This document shows, in pieces, positions 21,569 to 30,234 of a stretch of DNA of 64,000 nt (its first letter is position 1; every line of letters starts with the position of its first letter). The stretch is from an uncultured Spirochaetota bacterium. GTDB lineage: Bacteria > Spirochaetota > Spirochaetia > SZUA-6 > Fen-1364. The DNA lies in contig CAWGAA010000003.1 in assembly GCA_963820525.1 (NCBI GenBank), positions 640,001-704,000 of the forward strand. The letters run 5' to 3'. Made by a program: the position numbers and the translations under genes. Under the pieces are notes generated by a model. That model was not told the DNA's origin, made no database searches, and saw only the letters and a program-made list of their open reading frames with translations.

Positions 21569-23995
21569 ATGTCCGAAGAGATAAGATTCGCCCCCGGCTG
21601 GCCCGGAATCGCCCCCCGCTGGACATCGAGCGCCAAGCAGGGGGTCGGCTCCTCCCTCAACCCGGCGAGCCGCGTTTGGTTCAGCGTGAGCCACGGGATC
21701 TTCAACGAGATCTACTACCCCCGGGTGGACCAGGCCTGCACCCGCGACATGGGGATGATTGTCACCTCGGACGACGGCTTCTTCTCCGAGGAGAAGAGGA
21801 GCGCGGAGCACAAGGTTTCCACGCTCGCGTCCGGCGTGCCGGCGTACGCGCTTTCCAACACAAGCGTCGACGGCCGCTACAGGATCGACAAGGAGGTGCT
21901 CACGGACCCCTGGCGGGAGGTGCTGCTGCAGAACACCCGCTTCACGGCCCTCACGGGGGCCCTGGGGAGCTACCGCCTCTACCTGATTCTCTCCCCGCAC
22001 ATTGCCAACAGGGGCTGGGGGAACACGGGCTGGCTGGGAGACTATAAAGGGGTCGAGATGCTCTTCGCACAGCGCGAGGGGACCTGCCTGGCGCTGGCCT
22101 GCTCCTGCCCCTGGCTGCGCCGTTCCGTGGGGTTCGTCGGCTCCTCCGACGGCTGGCAGGACTTGAGCCGAAACAAGCGCCTGACGGCGGTCTGGGACCG
22201 CGCGGAGAATGGAAACATTGCGCTCACGGCCGAGGTGGACCTCGCCTCCTCGAAGGGCGAGTTCGCGATCGCCCTCGGGTTCGGGGGCAACGCGGCAGAG
22301 GCGGGAAACCGCGCCCTGGCAAGCCTCGCCGACGGCTTCGATCACGCTAAGAGCCAGTACATCGCGGAGTGGCAACAGTGGCAGGAGCGCCTTTCATGGC
22401 GCGATGAGAGGCCGCGGGGCGAGAGCGGCCGGGATCGGTCAGCCGACATGCTTCGGACCAGCACCGCGATAATCCACGCCCATGAGGCGAAGAACTTCCC
22501 CGGAGGGATGATCGCGAGTCTCTCGGTCCCATGGGGCTTTTCCAAGGGAGACGATGACCTGGGAGGCTACCACCTGGTGTGGCCGCGGGACCTCGTTGAG
22601 ACGGCCGGGGGGATACTGGCGGCGGGGGGAACGGAGACGGTGGCCCGCGTGCTGCACTACCTCCAATCCACCCAGGAGCCGGACGGTCACTGGCCGCAGA
22701 ATATGTGGCTGGACGGGACGCCATACTGGTCGGGCATCCAGATGGACGAGACCGCCTTCCCCATCCTTTTAGTGGATCTCGCCTTGCGGCAGAAGGCGAT
22801 CGATGCGCATGAGCAGACGCGCATGTGGAGCATGGTGCGGCGCGCCGCCTCGTTCATCGTCCAAAACGGGCCGGTCACCCAGCAGGACCGCTGGGAGGAA
22901 GACCCCGGCTACTCCCCCTTCACTCTCGCGGTGGAGATCGCCGGCCTCCTGTGCGCGGCCGACATGGCGGATGTCCGCGGAGAGGCGCCCATTGCGCGGT
23001 ATCTCCGGGAAACGGCGGACTCCTGGAACGACGCGGTGGAGCGCTGGATCTACGCCGTAGGGACGGACCTTGCCCGAAAGCTCGGGGTTGAAGGCTACTA
23101 CGTTCGGATCTCTCCTCCCGATGTTGCCGATGCCCCCTCTCCAGCGGGAGGGTTCGTGCCGATCAAGAACCGGCCTCCGGGACAGGGCGTGGAGAGCGCC
23201 ACCCATATCGTGAGTGTCGATGCCCTGGCCCTTGTGCGCTTCGGGCTTCGGGCCGCGGACGATCCCAGGATCGTAAACACGGTGCGCGTCATTGATACGC
23301 TACTGAAGGTGGAAACGCCATCCGGCCCGGCCTGGCACAGGTACAACGACGACGGCTACGGAGAGCATGCCGACGGATCTCCGTTCGACGGAACGGGGAC
23401 CGGGAGGGCCTGGCCCCTCATCACGGGAGAGCGGGCGCACTACGAGCTTGCCGCCGGCCGCAAGGCCGAGGCGGAGAAGCTCTGCCGGGCCATGGAGGCA
23501 TTTGCCGGAGACGGCGGGCTGATCCCCGAGCAGGTATGGGATTCCGCCGACATCCCCGAACGCGAGCTTTTCTTCGGCAAGCCTTCGGGGTCCGCCATGC
23601 CCCTGCTCTGGGCGCACGCCGAGTACATCAAGCTTCGCCGCTCCATCTCTGACGGGAAAGTATTCGACATGCCGCCCCAGACCGTGAAACGCTACCTCGT
23701 CAATAAAACACATTCTCCCTACGCGGACTGGCGGCTGAACCAGAAGTGCCGTTTCATTCCGGTTGGAGAGACATTGCGCGTCGAGCTGCTCCAGGCCGCG
23801 CAGGTCCACTGGAGCACGGACGAGTGGAAGCACGCCCAGGACACGCAGACAAAACCAACGGGTCTCGGCGTTCACGTCGCCGACATTCCCACGGCGGATA
23901 TGCCCTCGGGCACCCGGATCGTCTTCACCCTCCGCTGGGCGGAGACCGGTTCCTGGGAAGGAACCGATTTCCGCCTGGAGGTGAGCGGAGGGTAG
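21569..23995 (+). CDS. GH15 glucoamylase/glucodextranase
   Basis: APGWPGI.PRWTSSAK, NEIYYP, IASLSVPWG, GYHLVWPRD, QMDE, QDRWEE, RYNDDGYGE, LIPEQVWD, AMPLLWAHAEY. Confidence 0.93.
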   Translation: MSEEIRFAPGWPGIAPRWTSSAKQGVGSSLNPASRVWFSVSHGIFNEIYYPRVDQACTRDMGMIVTSDDGFFSEEKRSAEHKVSTLASGVPAYALSNTSVDGRYRIDKEVLTDPWREVLLQNTRFTALTGALGSYRLYLILSPHIANRGWGNTGWLGDYKGVEMLFAQREGTCLALACSCPWLRRSVGFVGSSDGWQDLSRNKRLTAVWDRAENGNIALTAEVDLASSKGEFAIALGFGGNAAEAGNRALASLADGFDHAKSQYIAEWQQWQERLSWRDERPRGESGRDRSADMLRTSTAIIHAHEAKNFPGGMIASLSVPWGFSKGDDDLGGYHLVWPRDLVETAGGILAAGGTETVARVLHYLQSTQEPDGHWPQNMWLDGTPYWSGIQMDETAFPILLVDLALRQKAIDAHEQTRMWSMVRRAASFIVQNGPVTQQDRWEEDPGYSPFTLAVEIAGLLCAADMADVRGEAPIARYLRETADSWNDAVERWIYAVGTDLARKLGVEGYYVRISPPDVADAPSPAGGFVPIKNRPPGQGVESATHIVSVDALALVRFGLRAADDPRIVNTVRVIDTLLKVETPSGPAWHRYNDDGYGEHADGSPFDGTGTGRAWPLITGERAHYELAAGRKAEAEKLCRAMEAFAGDGGLIPEQVWDSADIPERELFFGKPSGSAMPLLWAHAEYIKLRRSISDGKVFDMPPQTVKRYLVNKTHSPYADWRLNQKCRFIPVGETLRVELLQAAQVHWSTDEWKHAQDTQTKPTGLGVHVADIPTADMPSGTRIVFTLRWAETGSWEGTDFRLEVSGG

Positions 23996-23999
23996 ACTT

Positions 24000-26900
24000 C
24001 TACTGGTCGAAATACCCCACGATCGTGTTGGCATGGTTGGTCGAGGTGGGCTGGTAGTTGGTCTCATTCCACACATCCTGGGCCGTCAGGTTCTGGTAGA
24101 GGTCTGCATTGACCGAAATACTGATCGGAATGTTGTTCTCGAGGAGAGTCTTCAGTATCGTAATCTGCGCAGCGGAAGTTATGTACACACTATACGCCAT
24201 GCCATAATCCCCAGCTGCCGGGATGTTGCTCCTGTACAGCGGCGCCTCTCTCCACGCCGCTTCGGATGGCCAGGAGGTCTTGTCGGTATCATAGTAAGGG
24301 AAAGTCTGCCAGCTCGCCGCCCCGATGTTGGAGAGAATGTCGGTATTGTCCGTCGAGTACGATCCCGTGTCCGCGCCTCCGTTGATCTGATGGTAGACGA
24401 AGTTGGGGCTGAAAAGCTTGTCCTGCATGCTGTCGGGCTGATGCGGCCATGAGCCTATCATCTTCACGGTGGAGAGGTCCCAGTTGTGCTCGAGGGCTTC
24501 CTGGAATGTCTTGATGTAGTACGTGGTGGACCAGGACGCGCAGGAGCCCTGGGACCCCTGGTTTCCGATGGGCGGGAAGGATTTCAAAGCGCTCAGGTCT
24601 ACAGAGAGCGGCGCGCCGAGGGGCCCGCCCGATTTCAGGGAATCCACGATCCGGGTCGTTTGCTGGATCCGCGCCCACTGCTCCTCCGTGGGAGGCCGCA
24701 GGCCCGTGCCGTGACCGTTGATGATCTTGTTGTAGTTCTTTCCCTTCTCCGCCACGCCGATGATTCTTTTCATCTGGCTGAGCTCGGCATCCGTCATGCG
24801 GTGCGAATTGACGAGGTTCGCGATCCTGGACTGCCCAACCAAGCTGAGCGCGAGGGGCGACGGCGTTCCGACGATTCCCGCTGTATAAATGTCGGCGTAC
24901 ACGGTGCCGCCATCAACCGTGCTCATGGGAAGCGTCGAATAGGATGCATAGGTAGCTTTTGTCCCTCCATACGTTGTGTATTTCTCGAGGGTGAAAGAAT
25001 TGATCGACCCAATGTCAGGATTTGCGTTGCTGTCGGTAACCTTGAGGAACAGATCGTAGCTATTGATATCCGCAGCGAACTCGGAAATGTCGAGGGCCAT
25101 GACGTTCGAGGGGAAAGCGATGGCATCGCCGGTTATTCCATAGTTGTAGAAGGTCTTTGTCTTGAATGGCGTGGTGTGAGAGCCAAGGCCAACGACGATG
25201 GTGCAGTCGCCCTTCTTTGGATGCGTGATGCCAAATGTCACAAGAAGCGTGGGATTATAGGCGGCCTTGTCCTCGAAGAACAGCGCATACATGCTGGCAT
25301 TTATAACAGCTTGGTACGTGATGAAGTAGAAGCCATCCTGGATGTTCTCCCACTTCGCCGTTCCATCGTTTGCCCCCCACGAGTTGGCCACCTTGAAGGT
25401 TCCAACCGGAGAAGGAACGACAAACGGCACGTTCGACCAAGCCGAATCGTTTCCTGATGGGCCGACTGCCTTCACCCTGTACCAGCGCTGCTGCCCCGCA
25501 GTGATGCCGGTGGTCTGGTCGTAGGAGACCACGTTCGCGCCGACCGTTGTCAAAGCGGCAAACCCGGTTGTTCCCGAGGTGGTGCTCGTTTCAATGCCAA
25601 AGCCCGTCTCACCCGTGGAGTTGTCTGTCCATGCGAGATGGACCGAGCTGGCGGTGGGGGCGGTAGCCGTGAGGTTGGTCGGCGCGGGCAGCGCCTGCGT
25701 CGTCGTCGCGCTCGGGACGTTGGACCACAGGGAATTGTTGCCCGCCGAGGCATTTGCCCTGACTCTGTACCAGTACGTCGTATTGCCGCTCAAGCCGGTG
25801 TTGGTGTACGTGGTGATGTTGATCGCTGTCGTTGTCACCAGGGCGAAACCGGTTGTGCCGCTCGTGCTGCTGCGCTCGACCCTGAACCCGCTTTCAGCGG
25901 TAGAGTTGTCCACCCAATCCAGCTTGATCGAGGTCATTGATTGCACGCTCAGAGTCAGGCCGGTGGGTGCCTGCAAGAGCGTCTTGGCACTTGCTGTGCT
26001 GGACCATGCCGAATTGTTCCCAGCCGGGCCCGCCGCGCTGACCCTGTACCAGTATGTCGTATTGACGCTCAGGCTTGAGGCATCTGTGTATGTCGTGGCG
26101 TTCGCCGCTGTCGTGGTAACGAGGTCGAACCCGCTGGTAGAGCCAGTGGAGCTGCGCTGCACGATGAATCCGGTCTCGTTGGCCGAGTTGTCGGTCCACG
26201 CGAGACTGATCGAGTCAGGGCCAATGGCCGTTGCCGTAAGGCCCGTGGGATTCAAGAGGAAGGTTGCCGCGCTCGCCGTGTTCGAATACCCGGATGGGCC
26301 GCCGGCGTTTGTCGCCTTGATCCTGTACCAGTAGATTGTGCCGGCGCTCCCGTTTGTGTCATTGTATGAGACCGCGTTTGCGGCAATGGAAGATGAGACC
26401 TCGCTGAAGCCCGTCGTGTCGGAAACCGAGCTTCTCTCCAGAGTGAACCCCGTCTCGTTGCCTGAGTTGTCGGTCCAGGTGAGGTCTATCTCATAGGAAG
26501 AGCTTGCGGTCGCGACAAGGTTCGTGGGTGCCGCTGGAGGCGTGACGGAGGTGGTAGCGGTGGCAACGTTCGACCATGCTGAATCGTTGCCCGCGGTGCC
26601 CGCGGCCTTGACCCTGTACCAGTAGGGTGTGGTGGCGCTCAAGCCGGTCGTGTCCGGATAGCCGGTGGTGTTGGCCGCGAGGGCGGCTATCTGGCTGAAG
26701 CCCGTTGTACTGGAAACGGCGCTTCGCTCGATTATGAATCCCGTTTCATCGGTTGAGTTGTCGGTCCACGTTAGGTTTATGGACGTTGCACCCGAGGAAG
26801 TGGCGACAAGGTTGCTCGGCGCATTCGGAACCACCGCGGGCGTCGTTGCGCTTGCGGTATTGGAGTAGGCGGATTTTCCGTCGCTTCCGACCGCCCGAAC

Positions 26901-27197
26901 ACGGAATGAATAGCCGGTCTGCGGGGTAAGCCCGGTGGCGAGGTATTGCTTGGCGTCCGCCGCCGTTGTCCCGAGCAGCGAGAACTGGCCTCCGGTCGCG
27001 CTCCCCTCCACTTCGAATCCGCTCTCGTTGTCCGATTTGTCGCTCCACGAAAGCTGAACCGACGTGGCAGAGACGCCGGTTGCCGTCAAGCTGTCAGGCG
27101 CCGCGGGAGGATTGCTGCTGGGGGTCGGGTTTGGACAGCCTGAAAAGAAAACAATCGAAAGGATCAAGAGGAGAATGGCCGCTTTGTTTTTGGACAT
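24000..27197 (-). CDS. Lipoprotein with six FN3 repeats and a circularly permuted papain-family (C1A) cysteine peptidase
   Basis: FFSGC lipobox; six WxDxSxxExGF FN3 units; then FKVANSWG (Asn, about 25374-25385), a putative pro-region NGHGTGLRPPT, PPIGNQGSQGSCASW (Cys 24540-24542), ending TNHANTIVGYFDQ* (His 24033-24035). Confidence 0.88.
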   Translation of the reverse strand: MSKNKAAILLLILSIVFFSGCPNPTPSSNPPAAPDSLTATGVSATSVQLSWSDKSDNESGFEVEGSATGGQFSLLGTTAADAKQYLATGLTPQTGYSFRVRAVGSDGKSAYSNTASATTPAVVPNAPSNLVATSSGATSINLTWTDNSTDETGFIIERSAVSSTTGFSQIAALAANTTGYPDTTGLSATTPYWYRVKAAGTAGNDSAWSNVATATTSVTPPAAPTNLVATASSSYEIDLTWTDNSGNETGFTLERSSVSDTTGFSEVSSSIAANAVSYNDTNGSAGTIYWYRIKATNAGGPSGYSNTASAATFLLNPTGLTATAIGPDSISLAWTDNSANETGFIVQRSSTGSTSGFDLVTTTAANATTYTDASSLSVNTTYWYRVSAAGPAGNNSAWSSTASAKTLLQAPTGLTLSVQSMTSIKLDWVDNSTAESGFRVERSSTSGTTGFALVTTTAINITTYTNTGLSGNTTYWYRVRANASAGNNSLWSNVPSATTTQALPAPTNLTATAPTASSVHLAWTDNSTGETGFGIETSTTSGTTGFAALTTVGANVVSYDQTTGITAGQQRWYRVKAVGPSGNDSAWSNVPFVVPSPVGTFKVANSWGANDGTAKWENIQDGFYFITYQAVINASMYALFFEDKAAYNPTLLVTFGITHPKKGDCTIVVGLGSHTTPFKTKTFYNYGITGDAIAFPSNVMALDISEFAADINSYDLFLKVTDSNANPDIGSINSFTLEKYTTYGGTKATYASYSTLPMSTVDGGTVYADIYTAGIVGTPSPLALSLVGQSRIANLVNSHRMTDAELSQMKRIIGVAEKGKNYNKIINGHGTGLRPPTEEQWARIQQTTRIVDSLKSGGPLGAPLSVDLSALKSFPPIGNQGSQGSCASWSTTYYIKTFQEALEHNWDLSTVKMIGSWPHQPDSMQDKLFSPNFVYHQINGGADTGSYSTDNTDILSNIGAASWQTFPYYDTDKTSWPSEAAWREAPLYRSNIPAAGDYGMAYSVYITSAAQITILKTLLENNIPISISVNADLYQNLTAQDVWNETNYQPTSTNHANTIVGYFDQ
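25415..27110 (-). repeat. Six tandem FN3 coding repeats (about 95 aa each)
   Basis: Recurring PxxL...WTDNSxxETGFxxERS...YWYRVxA...SAWS units. Confidence 0.85.
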
Positions 27198-27307
27198 ATT
27201 GCCTCTCGTTTCGAATGAGCGCTTAAGAGAATTGTAGCACGCAAAATGTCTGATGTCTAAGCAATGATGCACAAACAACAGCAGCATGGCGATCGGCCCC
27301 GGTTTTT

Positions 27308-27550
27308 ATCTGACTAAAACGGTCAGAGTCACGTTTGGAGGCAACTGGATCTGCCACGAGTTTGTCCCGCTCGCACCGGAGGCGGCAAGGTAATAGAGGT
27401 TCGATGCCCTGGGCATGACTCCTTGCGACAAGTCGGTCAGGACCGTGGGGCCGACGAGGCTCACGCGATAGTAATAAGTGGTGCTGGGAAGAAGGCCGGA
27501 ACGTCAGTGAACGTTGTGGCCGAACCGCTTTAGACCTGGGTGTCGTAGCT
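27308..27550 (-). pseudogene. Decayed FN3 gene remnant
   Basis: SYDTQV*SGSATTFTD/[frameshift]GLLPSTTYYYRV..., resembling TNQVYSGSSTYYTD and TDSGLSSSTTYYYQV of the neighbouring gene; TAA where a Tyr is expected; no start. Confidence 0.6.
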
Positions 27551-27585
27551 TAGCAAACGCGCGGGACGACTCCGTGAGGAAATGA

Positions 27586-27617
27586 GACGCCTCCGCGCTT
27601 GAAAGCGCGGAAGCGTC
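27586..27617 (-). terminator. Hairpin terminator after the FN3 lipoprotein gene
   Basis: GACGC-C-TCCGCGCTT-GA-AAGCGCGGA-A-GCGTC stem-loop 16 nt past the stop. Confidence 0.6.
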
Positions 27618-27633
27618 ATCTTTGTGAACGAAC

Positions 27634-29235
27634 CTAAGGTACTCGAATGCCTTTCGTTGATGGAACCGAGGGAGCGACAGGGGCGGAACCGCGTCCGCTC
27701 ATCACATCATTAAGATATTTCGTCAACGCATTAAGCAGCGTGGGCTGCTTGGTGACGACGACTGGGGAAAGCTGCTGGAAGCGCATATCTTCAGGAGTTC
27801 CCGGGAAGGACTCAGAAGACCCTACTGATGCGATAAACCCTGTCAGGCCACCGAAGCCGCCCGTATTGTAGAGATATTCGATAGTGTAGGTGTTGAGATA
27901 GAATTGGAAGTAATAGTTTGGATTGGAGTAGTAATAATAGCCTTCAATCCAGTTATCGGAGGAGTTGAAGCCGGTGTAGAGATGTGAGGAATACTTCCAA
28001 GCCACAAGAGAGCTTACTGAGCCACTTATGACCTGCTGAATTGTGTAATAACCGGTTGTATCGATCAGCAGCCTCATGTAATTATTGCCATCGCTGTAGT
28101 TAAAGATAACCCCATAGCCTTGTGTCGAATTGCCGCTCACCTTATGCATGAATGACGAGAGGGAAATTCCCGTAGACATGTAAGATCCAGTGATATACGC
28201 CAGAGCTACAGTGCCCAGTTTGGAGCTATCATTCGTTGCCCAGCGTATATAGCTGTTACCATCGTCTACCCATGCAATGGTTCCCGTGGGAACAGCGGAC
28301 ACATATGCAGACTTAGACGCGCTTGGGCCGGCGGAGTTCGATGCCTGCACTTTGTAGTAGTAGTAGGTTCCAAGAGCCACTAAGTTATCAGTGTAGTATG
28401 TTGAGCTGCCGGAATATACTTGGTTAGTGAACGACCCGCCAGAGCTCGTATCGCGGAACAGCTGATACGTGTCAGCGGTAGAAACCGAGTCCCAGCTCAA
28501 GGTCAATGCCGTCGCGGTGTTGCTGGATACATTAAGCCCGGTTGGGGTGTCGGGCGGCACGACACCACTTGTCGTCGTCCCGCTGACAGGTGGTGTTGAG
28601 TATGCGCTTGTCCCGTAGGTGTTTGAAGCGGCAACTTGATAGTAATAGGTTGTCGAGCTGCTAAGGCCGCTATCCGTAAAATACGTCGAGGCCCCAGTGT
28701 ATATCGTGCTGAAAGAACTGGGTGAGCCGATGGCCCGCTGTACAGTGTAGCTCGTTGCGCCAGAGGAGGCATTCCAGCTCACGTACAGCGATATTGAGGT
28801 TGGGCTTCCGACGGCAAGGCCGGTTGGAGTAGCCGGAGCTGACCCTCCCCCCGTGCTCGCCCATCCTTCGGCAGGGTTGCTTTTAGATCCTTCCTGATCT
28901 TTCGAGTTTACGCCAGAGACCTTGTAGAAGTAATGAGTCCCGGCGCTCACGCCCGTTCCGGTTATCACCGCGCCGGTAGTTGTTACGTCTCCGCTCAGCT
29001 GTGAGTAGAGTCCAGTCGCTGACGTCGCCTCATAGACGTAATACTTGACCGCATATTGGGCTGTATTCCAGGAGAGGTCGATCGCATCAGTCACAGTTCC
29101 CTGAGTCGCTACAAGCCCGGTCGGTGCTGCCGGAGTGGTGTCCTGCTCCTGCTGAGAACCCGCTTTCTTACAAGAAAGCGCAACGGAAGAAATGGATATG
29201 ATGATGATTGCTAACTTCAAAAGTCTCTTTTTCAT
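27634..29235 (-). CDS. FN3-repeat lipoprotein (3 FN3 + C-terminal beta-sandwich), lower GC
   Basis: GGAGG SD; MKKRLLK...ALSC lipobox; three PxxPTGL...YYYxVxA units; Tyr-rich beta domain. Confidence 0.85.
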   Translation of the reverse strand: MKKRLLKLAIIIISISSVALSCKKAGSQQEQDTTPAAPTGLVATQGTVTDAIDLSWNTAQYAVKYYVYEATSATGLYSQLSGDVTTTGAVITGTGVSAGTHYFYKVSGVNSKDQEGSKSNPAEGWASTGGGSAPATPTGLAVGSPTSISLYVSWNASSGATSYTVQRAIGSPSSFSTIYTGASTYFTDSGLSSSTTYYYQVAASNTYGTSAYSTPPVSGTTTSGVVPPDTPTGLNVSSNTATALTLSWDSVSTADTYQLFRDTSSGGSFTNQVYSGSSTYYTDNLVALGTYYYYKVQASNSAGPSASKSAYVSAVPTGTIAWVDDGNSYIRWATNDSSKLGTVALAYITGSYMSTGISLSSFMHKVSGNSTQGYGVIFNYSDGNNYMRLLIDTTGYYTIQQVISGSVSSLVAWKYSSHLYTGFNSSDNWIEGYYYYSNPNYYFQFYLNTYTIEYLYNTGGFGGLTGFIASVGSSESFPGTPEDMRFQQLSPVVVTKQPTLLNALTKYLNDVMSGRGSAPVAPSVPSTKGIRVP

Positions 29236-29304
29236 AATAAACCTCCATTTACTGCAAAATCTTCGATGTTGAACCTTCTCTAGTATTAGCTGAGACCGGA
29301 TATG

Positions 29305-29332
29305 ATTATACCACAGCTCTTTTTGCTGTCAA
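29305..29332 (-). promoter_or_regulatory. Consensus sigma70 promoter
   Basis: TTGACA-16-TATAAT with TGn extension. Confidence 0.7.
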
Positions 29333-29448
29333 ATTATTTCGACAATTGCTGCGTTTTTTTCGAAATATCACGATTTTTTCGGCCGCCGAAACCGGCGAAC
29401 CGGGATTTGGAGTCCTGCTTTGCCGAAATGCTGTTCGCCGTCGGACAC

Positions 29449-30234
29449 TTAATCCCTCAGGAACCCCAGCACCTCGCGCAGGAAAGCGTCCGGAGCTCCC
29501 GACATGGCGGAGTGACGCTGGCCATCGAGCACCGCGACTCTACTGTAGTGAAGGTTTTCATGGAGCATGCCCACTGCGGCGCGAAGGGGAGGGGGGCTCT
29601 CGCTTCCCGTGAGAAGAAGGGTCGGCACCCTGAAGCCCGCAAACCGGGCCGGGTCGAACCGGTATGTGGAGCGCTCACGGGCCTCGCGGGGAAGAACACC
29701 CGAGATGGCCACCCGGGCCTTCCAGGAAGGGGAAGCCTTCGAGCGCTCGATCTCACCGTCCGACATCCGGATGACTTCTTTCAGGAAGGAGACCCATATA
29801 CCTTGCAAATCGCCCATCGAAAGCAGCTCCTCGACACGGGCCAGGAATTTCGAATCGTACATTTCCTCTCCAACGACGGTGATGGGGGGCTCGTAAAGGA
29901 TCATCTTTTTCACACGGTCGGTGCGCGCCGCAGCCTCCAAGGCGCATATCCCCCCAAAAGAGTGGCCCAGGAGGTAGACGGGAGCGCCCGCGGCTTCAAT
30001 AACGGCGAGGACGTCCTCGAACTCACGCTCAAGCTCGTAGCAGGGTGAGTCGCCGCTCTGTCCTCTGCCGCGCCGGTCCATGGTGTGCAGCCGGAAAGAC
30101 TCTCCCAGGGCCGCCGAGACCGATGCCCAGCGGAAGTGGGAATCTCCGGTGCCATGCACCAGAACGAGGGGAGCCCCCCTGCCGCTCACGCTGTACGCAA
30201 TGAGCGTCCCATCCTTCGATCGAGCGAATTCCAC
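29449..30234 (-). CDS. Alpha/beta hydrolase
   Basis: SKDGTLIAY, LVLVHG, DRRGRGQS, GHSFGG, LYEPP, GQRH; GTG start inferred. Confidence 0.9.
   Translation of the reverse strand: MEFARSKDGTLIAYSVSGRGAPLVLVHGTGDSHFRWASVSAALGESFRLHTMDRRGRGQSGDSPCYELEREFEDVLAVIEAAGAPVYLLGHSFGGICALEAAARTDRVKKMILYEPPITVVGEEMYDSKFLARVEELLSMGDLQGIWVSFLKEVIRMSDGEIERSKASPSWKARVAISGVLPREARERSTYRFDPARFAGFRVPTLLLTGSESPPPLRAAVGMLHENLHYSRVAVLDGQRHSAMSGAPDAFLREVLGFLRD

Follow-up and report, generated by a model that had tools for sequence, protein, structure and literature searches.

The window analyzed here is a stretch of 64,000 nucleotides from an uncultured Spirochaetota bacterium (GenBank assembly GCA_963820525.1, contig CAWGAA010000003.1, positions 640,001 to 704,000). 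On its minus strand, an uninterrupted open reading frame at 24000-27197 encodes a lipoprotein of 1065 amino acids; the frame reaches 27287 if an upstream ATG is the start. The ATG at 27197, which has GAGAGG 6 nt upstream, is the probable true start, and P0003, a homologue at 71% identity, shares its MSKNK beginning. The protein consists of a lipobox, six fibronectin type III (FN3) repeats and a protease module of 470 residues (residues 1-470 of the structural model are aa 596-1065). Within the module, an Asn605-Ser-Trp strand is followed by a beta-sandwich domain, a pro-like segment, Gln880 and Cys886, His1055 and the stop. The features are as follows.

27135..27197, minus strand: signal peptide with lipobox MSKNKAAILLLILSIVFFSG-C21 (translation; positive in our own crude pattern test)
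25413..27107, minus strand: six fibronectin type III repeats forming the stalk, aa about 31-595 (PF00041 in Pfam at E 8e-39 and 132 bits, 6 stretches)
25263..25412, minus strand: aa 596-645, the C-terminal part of the usual papain fold, here permuted, with the strand FKVANS (homologue matches, family profile, conservation, model)
25383-25385, minus strand: Asn605, the predicted catalytic Asn in the FKVANS strand
25377-25379, minus strand: Trp607, next to Ser606
25374-25385, minus strand: NSWG, aa 605-608 (translation)
24873..25262, minus strand: beta-sandwich domain, aa 646-775 (all-beta in the model)
24813..24872, minus strand: junction linker, aa 776-795, between the former C-terminal side and the former N-terminus (lowest-pLDDT stretch)
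24612..24812, minus strand: pro-like segment inside the chain, aa 796-862, bearing the conserved motif NYNxIINGHGTGLRPPTEEQW (alignment, structural overlays)
24687-24719, minus strand: NGHGTGLRPPT, aa 827-837 (translation)
24003..24611, minus strand: Cys/His protease part, aa 863-1065 (Pfam PF00112, structural alignment, conservation)
24558-24560, minus strand: Gln880, in the Cys/His part
24540-24542, minus strand: Cys886, at the end of NQGSQGSC in the Cys/His part
24033-24035, minus strand: His1055, at the start of HANTIVGY, with the chain end 10 residues beyond
24000..24002, minus strand: stop codon; the convergent GH15 gene ends 4 nt away (23995)
21569-23995, convergent: GH15/glucodextranase open reading frame (Pfam E 1.6e-97 and 3e-33)

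The initial annotation had described a single uninterrupted frame on a six-FN3 lipoprotein stalk that stops right after HANTIVGY and next to a convergent GH15 gene. The translation bears this out: all the motifs named there are in place, Pfam finds the six fn3 stretches, and HANTIVGY is followed by F-D-Q only before the stop. The lipoprotein call, with its lipobox at C21, comes from our own crude pattern and not from a dedicated predictor. The only cysteines of the whole protein are C21, C665 and C886. The gene lies in a stretch of low GC content (0.54-0.58 vs 0.62-0.67 in the surroundings) and was not found in 23 of the 24 genomes of the same family that were searched; its nearest DNA matches are in freshwater-sediment and wetland metagenomes. 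A second FN3 lipoprotein is encoded by the neighboring gene at 27634-29235.

Segment order and conservation among homologues

We compared the module with its homologues as two segments, A (aa 596-790) and B (aa 791-1065). Each segment matches the same 232 proteins (BLAST E ~1e-13 to 1e-135), so the arrangement is, judging from these matches, far beyond chance. A precedes B in 58 of the 232, one of them the database copy of our open reading frame, and B precedes A in the other 174; these counts cover the 232 homologues, with ~3,000 further matches lying outside the set. The order claimed in the initial annotation thus recurs in 57 other proteins. In all permuted members, 0-13 residues remain beyond the B match, which ends just past the His strand. 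Among the species-representative loci (n=80), 16 are permuted, 58 canonical and 6 partial, and the titles of the permuted ones name Kosmotogaceae, Petrotogaceae, Mesotoga, Thermotogaceae, Spirochaetia, Halanaerobiales, Cloacimonadota and a 'delta proteobacterium'.

The canonical relatives, such as P0205 (484 aa), come from Latescibacteria, Bacteroidota, Bathyarchaeota and Thermoplasmata, including sediment-associated groups such as Bathyarchaeia, and some are named 'C1 family peptidase' by NCBI. They share the pro-like segment, the Cys/His part, the Asn part and the beta domain with the permuted protein at 35-50% identity, together with the catalytic residues and the GHGTGLRPPT motif, but in a different order: signal peptide, pro-like segment, Cys, His, a hairpin of 25-30 residues, Asn, beta domain and accessory domains. 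Accordingly, aa 596-645 match the canonical relatives just past their His strand, and at the linker (aa 776-795) the match to these relatives begins right after their signal peptide.

The catalytic residues are retained in both groups. All rows of both groups have Q880 and C886 (58/58 permuted, 171/171 canonical); the corresponding counts are 57/58 and 171/171 for H1055, 56/57 and 167/168 for N605, and 56/57 and 164/168 for W607. Across the N, S and W of the first strand, conservation ranges over 55-56 permuted rows out of 57 and 163-167 canonical rows out of 168. Identity among the 58 permuted sequences is 37-72%. All but one of the permuted rows (57/58) fall inside one 60-row clade with a support of 98, and a tree constrained to permuted monophyly lies 34.4 log-likelihood units above the free tree (p-AU 0.83). 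The permutation therefore apparently had a single origin, with the permuted group forming one clade in these trees. No tandem B-A-B-A or A-B-A intermediate was found among the 232 proteins, a set that leaves the 'longer' and 'shorter' length classes outside, and P0189 is the sole protein of the 232 with an A match in two pieces.

Relation of the module to C1 peptidases

In the alignments, Q880, C886, H1055, N605, S606 and W607 correspond to the QGxCGSC, NHA..VGY and NSWG motifs of cathepsin K and xylellain, and the linear Cys-His-Asn order of C1 is broken, with Asn605 ahead of Cys886 and His1055. The protein is homologous to C1, yet departs from the C1 topology. Pfam PF00112 (Peptidase_C1) matches aa 863-1062 at 22.8 bits (cut-off 20.7; E 1.1e-4), and the match spans only profile positions 2-175 of 220 and hence ends just after the His. 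At E 0.01, PF00112 does not match the canonical relatives P0013 and P0017, a single-sequence phmmer search against PDB sequences gave 0 hits at E 1, and Pfam returned nothing for permuted NlpC/P60, LRAT, PPPDE/C97 and C92 at E up to 1. The initial annotation had anticipated two Peptidase_C1 hits in inverted order. Only one partial Pfam hit is seen, because the ~45-residue Asn piece alone scores nothing (neither this piece, as 53 aa, nor aa 590-860 had a Pfam hit, even at E 10); the inversion itself emerges with a family profile. This profile (A2), built from short permuted proteins only, matches xylellain (3ois_A) in inverted order at E 1.6e-5, with profile positions 8-45, 272-302 and 351-399 on 3ois_A 246-279, 57-84 and 116-180, respectively. 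It replaced a profile from alignment A1 that was swamped by FN3 matches (titin and similar proteins).

The AF2 model of the module is one compact unit (pLDDT 90.7, pTM 0.92), with a first strand at model residues 4-9 (pLDDT about 90) and a last strand at 460-469. Superposed on mature C1A enzymes, model residues 267-470 match the two-lobed papain fold over enzyme residues 1-172 (Z 13.2-14.2, rmsd 2.2-2.5, 164-170 aligned). For the canonical control P0205 (pLDDT 90.4), residues 95-350 align to whole enzymes (1-215/221, Z about 21), and its residues 304-348, homologous to aa 599-645, supply the part missing from model residues 267-470. Given the homology to the canonical proteins, the DSSP strand calls and the pTM, the Asn605 strand would lie beside the His1055 strand as in papain, so that the Cys-His-Asn triad and the Gln oxyanion hole would form across the chain ends. 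Mutual information between columns 1-50 of segment A and segment B (222 paired rows) was dominated by class-specific columns and was uninformative on strand pairing. For the beta domain, Pfam gave no hit and Foldseek gave weak matches in which about 130 columns aligned with the PLAT-type domains found in pancreatic lipase and lipoxygenases (E 2e-3 to 1e-2). In the ESM Atlas, the 'thiol protease' clusters that it matched scored low, at 0.86 and 0.75, which we regard as a lead only.

The best structural match is the short C1A peptidase xylellain from the bacterium Xylella fastidiosa (PDB 3ois), which scores Z 16.4 against the permuted model and Z 24.9 against P0205. Xylellain differs in having the usual order and neither beta domain nor stalk, and identity to it is only 19-25%. 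Thus, the initial label C1A holds as far as the papain fold and catalytic residues are concerned, but it is a loose one, since the protein sits at the edge of the Pfam C1 model and its closest structure is of the bacterial xylellain type. The analogy to cathepsin L drawn initially fits the model well: the heavy chain of the two-chain form, 1icf_A (175 residues), overlays model residues 267-470 (Z 14.2, rmsd 2.5, 167 aligned), and the Foldseek TM score for the heavy chain (1icf_A / 1mhw_A) is 0.70, normalized to the target. In both proteins the break lies between the His strand and the Asn strand. In cathepsin L, however, it is post-translational and the gene has the usual order, whereas the permuted gene encodes the break itself and the old ends are joined through the beta domain and the pro-like segment.

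Another surface-associated papain-family protease followed by a beta-rich domain is Cwp84 of Clostridioides difficile, a C1A enzyme with a lectin-like domain, the usual order and a different anchoring. It was not among the structural matches listed, which is no evidence against similarity.

We conclude that the protein is very probably a papain-fold (C1) cysteine peptidase, lipid-anchored and carried on a six-FN3 stalk, with a catalytic module that is a natural circular permutation. The initial proposal of a true permutation, cut in the His-to-Asn hairpin and with the prosegment inside the chain, is supported by four independent lines: the 57 other proteins of the same order against 174 of the usual order, the conservation of catalytic residues in both groups, confident AlphaFold models of both orders set against solved C1A structures, and short contigs of other runs across all three junctions. 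In such a permutation the chain of a usual-order fold would have been opened in the His-to-Asn hairpin, so that the Asn-Ser-Trp strand and beta domain come first, joined directly to the stalk. The old ends would be connected by the flexible linker, the pro-like segment would become internal, and the chain would end past the His strand.

Natural circular permutations that keep the catalytic residues of a papain-like fold are described for permuted NlpC/P60, LRAT, C92, PPPDE/C97 and LupA in a 2023 superfamily survey (PMC10318531). As outlined there, the Cys-bearing helix comes to follow the His strand in these families, either alone or together with strand beta1', and cluster I (papain, cathepsins) is said to keep the canonical structure (PMC10318531). 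Compared with those families, Cys886 still precedes His1055 in our protein and the Asn-bearing end alone has moved. A literature search outside subscription journals and MEROPS found permutations in other papain-fold families and none in C1; a paper on papain family origin (PMC10380794) has zero occurrences of 'permut', and the single mention of permutation in PMC4070553 concerns PDZ domains.

The permuted C1 group is widespread in bacteria and so far undescribed. Its members carry the source names 'hypothetical protein', 'fibronectin type 3 domain-containing protein' or none, and domain models truncate them, so that the group is under-annotated. C1 enzymes are among the best studied proteases, and the Cys-His-Asn order serves to recognize them; here a large, conserved bacterial group breaks that order at the very hairpin where cathepsin L is cut post-translationally. 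The overall architecture is flipped as well. The protease is N-terminal in 165/174 canonical relatives, with at least 100 residues following segment A in 170/174, whereas in the permuted proteins the lipid anchor and stalk come first and the protease last. A lipobox-like start is found in 7/153 canonical and 41/49 permuted proteins. Behind the canonical protease lie accessory domains or sorting tails (a T9SS tail, a dockerin and FlgD-Ig, confirmed in two proteins; PKD from precomputed labels). That this flip accompanies the permutation suggests why the permutation was kept.

The internal pro-like segment

Since the equivalent of the propeptide is internal, the permuted group offers a natural test of chain connectivity in folding, zymogen inhibition and activation. 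Pfam finds no I29 (ERFNIN-type) propeptide domain in the protein. Structurally, model residues 223-266 overlay the N-terminal region of xylellain, model residues 229-266 overlay the proregion of procathepsin X, and in P0205 the pro-like segment (residues 51-94) overlays the propeptides of procathepsins K, L and B and of propapain. From these overlays, the internal segment would be expected to cover the active-site cleft as in a zymogen. It is modeled at pLDDT 91-93 (model residues 201-260), with lower values at its flanks (66-77 and 72); the linker blocks 181-190 and 191-200, at 66 and 77, are the lowest of the model. In alignment A2, the G, T, G, PP and W of the segment are invariant, and the motif GHGTGLRPPTEExW is invariant or nearly so in both orders. 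Its mean pairwise identity is about that of the beta domain (about 0.41-0.44), compared with 0.49-0.61 for the catalytic parts. At the level of sequence, this conservation and the invariant motif would fit a permanent structural element as well as a removable propeptide.

We consider it nearly an even call, tilted slightly to the negative, that cleavage occurs in both flexible flanks of the segment, near aa 776-795 and near aa 855-865. Its excision would leave two chains held together without a disulfide, because C21, C665 and C886 are the only cysteines. Extended to the whole clade, with the prosegment moved to mid-chain and the Cys/His lobe of a disulfide-free two-chain enzyme held to the anchored chain by strand insertion only, the proposal becomes unlikely. 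If true, the two-chain form would be a built-in way to shed or irreversibly inactivate a surface protease, and a natural split-protease design for protein engineers.

Alternatively, the segment is never excised and is a permanent part of a single-chain permuted enzyme, which we regard as possible, though on balance somewhat doubtful. The motif that persists in both orders, a conservation equal to that of the beta domain and the confident modeling all agree with such a permanent role, and with no disulfide possible between the halves a single chain would be the safer design. On the other hand, the segment overlays the cleft-crossing part of true C1A zymogen propeptides, both of its flanks are the least confident and presumably flexible parts of the model, and in the canonical relatives it follows the signal peptide immediately, as a classical propeptide would. 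An uncut segment might act as a tethered lid that is reversibly displaced, or as a permanent partial block of the cleft that narrows specificity. In this manner, the occluding loop of cathepsin B and the mini-chain of cathepsin H each obstruct the cleft in part and restrict specificity.

Probable activity at the cell surface and integrity of the gene

The permuted enzyme is predicted to be active, and it probably serves to degrade proteins at the cell surface. In other lineages, genes for dedicated C1 inhibitors adjoin the permuted genes. Two loci (L056 and L060) have chagasin I42 genes 16-33 nt downstream (E 7.5e-27 and 3.7e-31), and two more (L002 and L003) have open reading frames bearing QVVAG/QVVQG directly downstream, with weak, below-threshold matches to cystatin. 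These neighbors point to regulated, active enzymes. Searches of the source genome (96.7% complete) recognized no chagasin (PF09394), no cystatin (PF00031) and no counterpart of the cystatin-like frame of L002, and the inhibitor context thus comes from other lineages only. It is very unlikely that the module is a non-catalytic derivative, that is, a binding module or pseudo-protease using the papain fold on a stalk for adhesion. The long FN3 stalk and the second FN3 lipoprotein next door would suit adhesion, but Gln, Cys, His, Asn and Trp have been kept across the 58 permuted sequences despite their divergence, and the adjoining inhibitor genes also speak for catalysis.

Least probable of all, and in our view hardly credible, is that the open reading frame results from misassembly, is chimeric or represents a truncated C1 gene, with an upstream NSWG unrelated to catalysis: Pfam does see only a truncated C1 domain, and low GC content and the failure to find the gene in most related genomes would fit, but both the order and the C-terminal end recur in 57 other proteins of many sources, the N-terminal piece keeps its catalytic residues, the permuted group is one clade, and the entire module folds confidently as a single unit. 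Misassembly was rejected on the shared order in the homologues and on the contigs that bridge the junctions. The junctions on which the initial annotation depended are present in contigs of other runs: those from X1 and X2, which belong to one study, and from X4, which belongs to a second, span 24000, ~24830 and ~25404, and no joints are reported at the bridging contigs. Around the stop codon, the contigs of X1 and X2, which may represent the very sample behind the window's assembly, match 23900/23922-24109/24209 without difference.

Reading frame and parts of the protease gene

The protease is encoded by a single open frame on the minus strand (27287 or 27197 to 24000), whose start we set at 27197 because the 71%-identical homologue P0003 begins there and this ATG is preceded, at a distance of six bases, by GAGAGG. 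Together with the lipoprotein signal, these features favour 27197; the public call of the ORF, P0002 (1095 aa), begins 30 codons upstream, at 27287.

Features of the protease gene and its neighbours (position, strand, feature)
27197, minus: start codon (MSKNK...), chosen over 27287
N-terminus, minus: signal peptide and lipobox, ending …VFFSG-C21, in the translated 1065-residue product
Six stretches, minus: fibronectin type III (FN3) repeats (Pfam PF00041, E 8e-39)
Following the FN3 repeats, minus: C-terminal module, 470 residues
25374-25385, minus: Asn605-Ser-Trp-Gly
24687-24719, minus: NGHGTGLRPPT
24558-24560, minus: Gln880
24540-24542, minus: Cys886
24033-24035, minus: His1055
24000-24002, minus: stop codon, preceded by ANTIVGYFDQ, ten residues after His1055
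27634-29235, minus: second FN3 lipoprotein gene (533 aa, …SSVALS-C, three FN3 stretches)
21569-23995, plus: glucodextranase/GH15 gene (808 aa; Glucodextran_N E 1.6e-97, Glyco_hydro_15 E 3e-33)

The motifs that the initial annotation had read from the sequence alone (NSWG, NGHGTGLRPPT, Cys886 and His1055) are all found where it placed them, and the ORF coordinates bear out its claim that the protein ends just past the His strand, 4 bases from the stop of the convergent GH15 gene, which leaves no space for a terminator. The Pfam match to Peptidase_C1 (aa 863-1062; 22.8 bits, cut-off 20.7) reaches profile positions 2-175 of 220 only, so the domain ends directly past this strand. We split the module in two, with segment A spanning aa 596-790 (the Asn strand and beta domain) and segment B spanning aa 791-1065 (a pro-like segment and the Cys/His part).

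Contigs from two runs of one study are identical to the window, and are possibly its source; those from one run of another study show 1-8 differences per contig. Short contigs from both studies span the 3' end as well as the FN3/A (~25404) and A/B (~24830) junctions, with no rearranged joints reported among them. They support the assembly; misassembly is ruled out for practical purposes, and the observation of a reordered ORF is confirmed.

Segment order, catalytic residues and predicted fold

Searching databases twice with the 470-residue module yielded, among the matches listed, 232 distinct relatives. The first returned 478 matches at E ≤ 0.001 among 8000 scored candidates (best 120 of 478 used), and the second 3123 matches at E ≤ 0.001 in 1.84 billion representatives (best 150 of 3123 used). 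Segments A and B were each placed in every relative by BLAST. A precedes B in 58 of the 232 listed relatives, that is, in the database copy of the window ORF and in 57 other homologues of the kind the initial annotation had proposed to look for; B precedes A in the other 174, and no protein with one segment only was found among the 232. In all 58 permuted proteins among the matches listed, the B match ends 0-13 residues short of the C-terminus, which reads …NHANT[IVL]VGY plus a few residues. In the usual-order relatives a hairpin comes behind the His strand and leads to …GAFKVANSWG, with a His-to-Asn spacing of 25-30 residues in the 87 of 93 proteins whose simple motifs could be paired. Segment order, C-terminal ends and this hairpin together indicate that the window protein is a usual-order protein opened in the His-Asn hairpin and closed at its old ends. 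Several complete permuted proteins (e.g. P0193 and P0145) are roughly a lipoprotein signal with the permuted module directly behind it.

Aligning segments A and B separately for both classes, after dropping short-match rows (7 of 232 for A, 3 of 232 for B), gave the following conservation.

Conserved catalytic-site residues (permuted rows; canonical rows)
Gln880: 58/58; 171/171
Cys886: 58/58; 171/171
His1055: 57/58 (one gap); 171/171
Asn605: 56/57; 167/168
Ser606: 55/57; 163/168
Trp607: 56/57; 164/168

We built a profile, A2, from eleven short permuted proteins and ran it against PDB sequences. In cathepsin K, profile 272-302 matched chain 3-33 (the mature N-terminus with the Cys region) and profile 425-473 matched chain 123-172 (the His region). 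Xylellain (3ois_A) was matched in three stretches in inverted order, namely profile 8-45 to chain 246-279 (…FRIRNSWG…), 272-302 to 57-84 and 351-399 to 116-180, which at the sequence level is the signature of a circular permutation.

AlphaFold2, supplied with an alignment of 48 permuted sequences, predicted the 470-residue module with a mean pLDDT of 90.7 and a pTM of 0.92. The first element of the model is strand 4-9 (FKVANS; first-block pLDDT 90) and the last is strand 460-469 (HANTIVGYFD); from homology, DSSP and the high pTM, Asn605 and His1055 are inferred to be in contact. Foldseek against the PDB ranked xylellain, procathepsin K and the cathepsin L heavy chain at the top. VIA-align placed model 267-470 on mature papain-family residues 1-~172 (Z 13.2-14.2, rmsd 2.2-2.5 Å, 164-170 aligned), never passing the His strand of the mature enzymes because the model ends there. 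The usual-order control P0205 (484 residues, 48-sequence alignment; pLDDT 90.4, pTM 0.90) covers entire mature enzymes, 1 to 215-221, with its residues 95-350 (Z ~21, 208-213 aligned; Z 24.9 for xylellain). Its ~42 extra aligned residues are 304-348, the counterpart by BLAST of window aa 599-645, and secondary structures in the two models follow the same cycle, opened at different points. Segment order, catalytic-residue conservation, the inverted profile match and the models thus support the claim that this is a circularly permuted papain-family protease, a reading we consider highly probable.

According to a 2023 survey of papain-like enzymes (PMC10318531), circular permutations occur in NlpC/P60-like enzymes, LRAT, C92, PPPDE/C97 and LupA, with the Cys helix as the moved part, and cluster I (papain, cathepsins) keeps canonical structures. 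The window case differs from these in its family (C1) and in its break, which falls between the His and Asn strands and gives the order Asn-Cys-His. The break coincides with the site of the heavy/light chain cut in cathepsin L, and the parallel drawn earlier with that enzyme holds, its 175-residue heavy chain matching model 267-470. The string 'permut' is absent from a 2023 study of how the papain family arose (PMC10380794), and full-text literature searches, which did not extend to subscription journals or MEROPS, turned up no permuted C1 enzyme. What is new here is a permuted clade within a classical protease family, of solid interest to specialists in proteases and protein evolution, and the permutation reading is directly testable.

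Origin and distribution of the permuted proteases

In the segment B tree made with FastTree (229 rows, including 58 permuted), 57 of the 58 permuted rows fall within one 60-row clade (support 98), and the outlier is a fragment truncated at its N-terminus. The clade also takes in three usual-order rows, which have long branches and weak placement. An IQ-TREE analysis covered all 58 permuted and 43 of 171 canonical rows (40 random, 3 kept on purpose; the other 128 left out). Constraining the permuted rows together gave a likelihood 34.4 units above that of the free search (p-AU 0.83), so a single origin of the permutation is not rejected on these alignments.

The permuted proteins also have a reversed architecture. 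Among the relatives listed, accessory domains are N-terminal in the permuted proteins and C-terminal in 170 of 174 canonical ones, and a lipobox-like start, by a crude pattern of our own, was seen in 41 of 49 permuted versus 7 of 153 canonical proteins beginning with M (fragments excluded: 8 permuted, 21 canonical).

Species-representative genomes yielded 80 loci, 16 permuted, 58 canonical and 6 partial. The permuted locus titles name Kosmotogaceae/Kosmotogales, Petrotogaceae/Petrotogales, Thermotogaceae, Mesotoga, Spirochaetia/Spirochaetales, Halanaerobiales, Cloacimonadota and an uncultured 'delta proteobacterium' (L082, 58% identity); many of the canonical loci come from Bathyarchaeia, Thermoplasmatota, Ignavibacteria and Bacteroidota. 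The copy in L082 (1915-3343), the closest relative in the genome collection, is broken into several short ORFs, and another permuted homologue, L004 (G033:C426:2894-4242), is split over two frames near query residue 302-305; both may be pseudogenes or reflect assembly indel errors.

The gene is single-copy in the window genome. Of 24 same-family genomes, 23 gave no match and the 24th only a weak partial one. Within the order, two other families have full permuted homologues, and in a third family the copy is broken into two frames. GC content is 0.54-0.58 at 24000-30000 versus 0.62-0.67 on both sides, and this stretch contains the protease gene and the second FN3 lipoprotein gene. Horizontal acquisition of the protease gene is likely, and 24000-30000 is probably an acquired island. 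In the product of the second gene, the C-terminal ~215 aa form a Tyr/Gly-rich domain that matches no Pfam model. Directly behind that gene, at ~27590-27625, there is a GC-rich hairpin, so it and the protease gene may be transcribed separately.

The pro-like segment and candidate inhibitor genes

In the usual-order relatives listed, segment B starts directly behind the signal peptide (within 80 residues in 165 of 174), and its first ~65 residues carry a nearly invariant NYNxIIxGHGTGLRPPTEExW. This pro-like segment coincides with known propeptide regions in both models. In the permuted model it superposes on xylellain's N-terminal region (223-470 on chain 25-247, Z 16.4) and on the procathepsin X proregion (229-470 on 6P-190), and in P0205 on the cleft-crossing propeptide part of procathepsin K, L, B and propapain (58-348 on 69P-215, and similar). 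Its flanks are where the permuted model is least confident (181-200, aa 776-795, pLDDT 66-77; 261-270, aa 856-865, pLDDT 72). The overlay and these flexible-looking flanks fit the internal prosegment pictured in the initial annotation, and excision of the segment comes close to an even chance. Its conservation, similar to that of the beta domain, suits a permanent lid equally well, and a lid of that kind, or one reversibly displaced, is an appreciable if rather doubtful possibility. Were the segment excised, no disulfide could hold the halves together, since the entire protein has three cysteines, C21, C665 and C886; a two-chain enzyme releasing its Cys/His half is a putative outcome.

We scanned the flanking ORFs of permuted genes (14 loci, 23 ORFs) and found candidate inhibitor genes at four.

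Candidate inhibitor genes beside permuted genes (position, strand, feature)
L056:4329-4988, plus: chagasin-type gene, ~220 aa, two I42 domains
L060:4327-4992, plus: chagasin-type gene, ~220 aa, two I42 domains
L002:1076-1462, minus: small lipoprotein-like ORF with QVVAG/QVVQG, directly downstream
L003:2649-3104, plus: small lipoprotein-like ORF with QVVAG/QVVQG, directly downstream

In the Halanaerobiales loci L056 and L060, the chagasin-family I42 gene (E 7.5e-27 and 3.7e-31) lies 16-33 nt downstream of the permuted gene, and the two look like a protease/inhibitor pair. L002 and L003 come from two genomes of the window organism's order; their ORFs share 32% identity (E 3e-13) and give sub-threshold matches both to Pfam Cystatin/SQAPI (E 0.015-0.22) and to phytocystatin-derived PDB chains (E 0.03-1.3). 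QxVxG is a cystatin hallmark, and these ORFs may encode bacterial cystatin-like inhibitors. Neither a chagasin nor a cystatin-like inhibitor gene was found in the window genome. Both inhibitor families aim at the cleft of papain-family enzymes, which argues for a normal, active cleft in the permuted enzymes, and the window protease is likely to be active.

The beta-sandwich domain (24873-25262, minus; aa 646-775) accompanies the protease family in both orders. No Pfam model matched it; Foldseek weakly matched it (~130 columns, E 2e-3 to 1e-2) to the PLAT-type domains found in pancreatic lipases and lipoxygenases, and it carries a conserved H-P-x-R-x-D-C motif.
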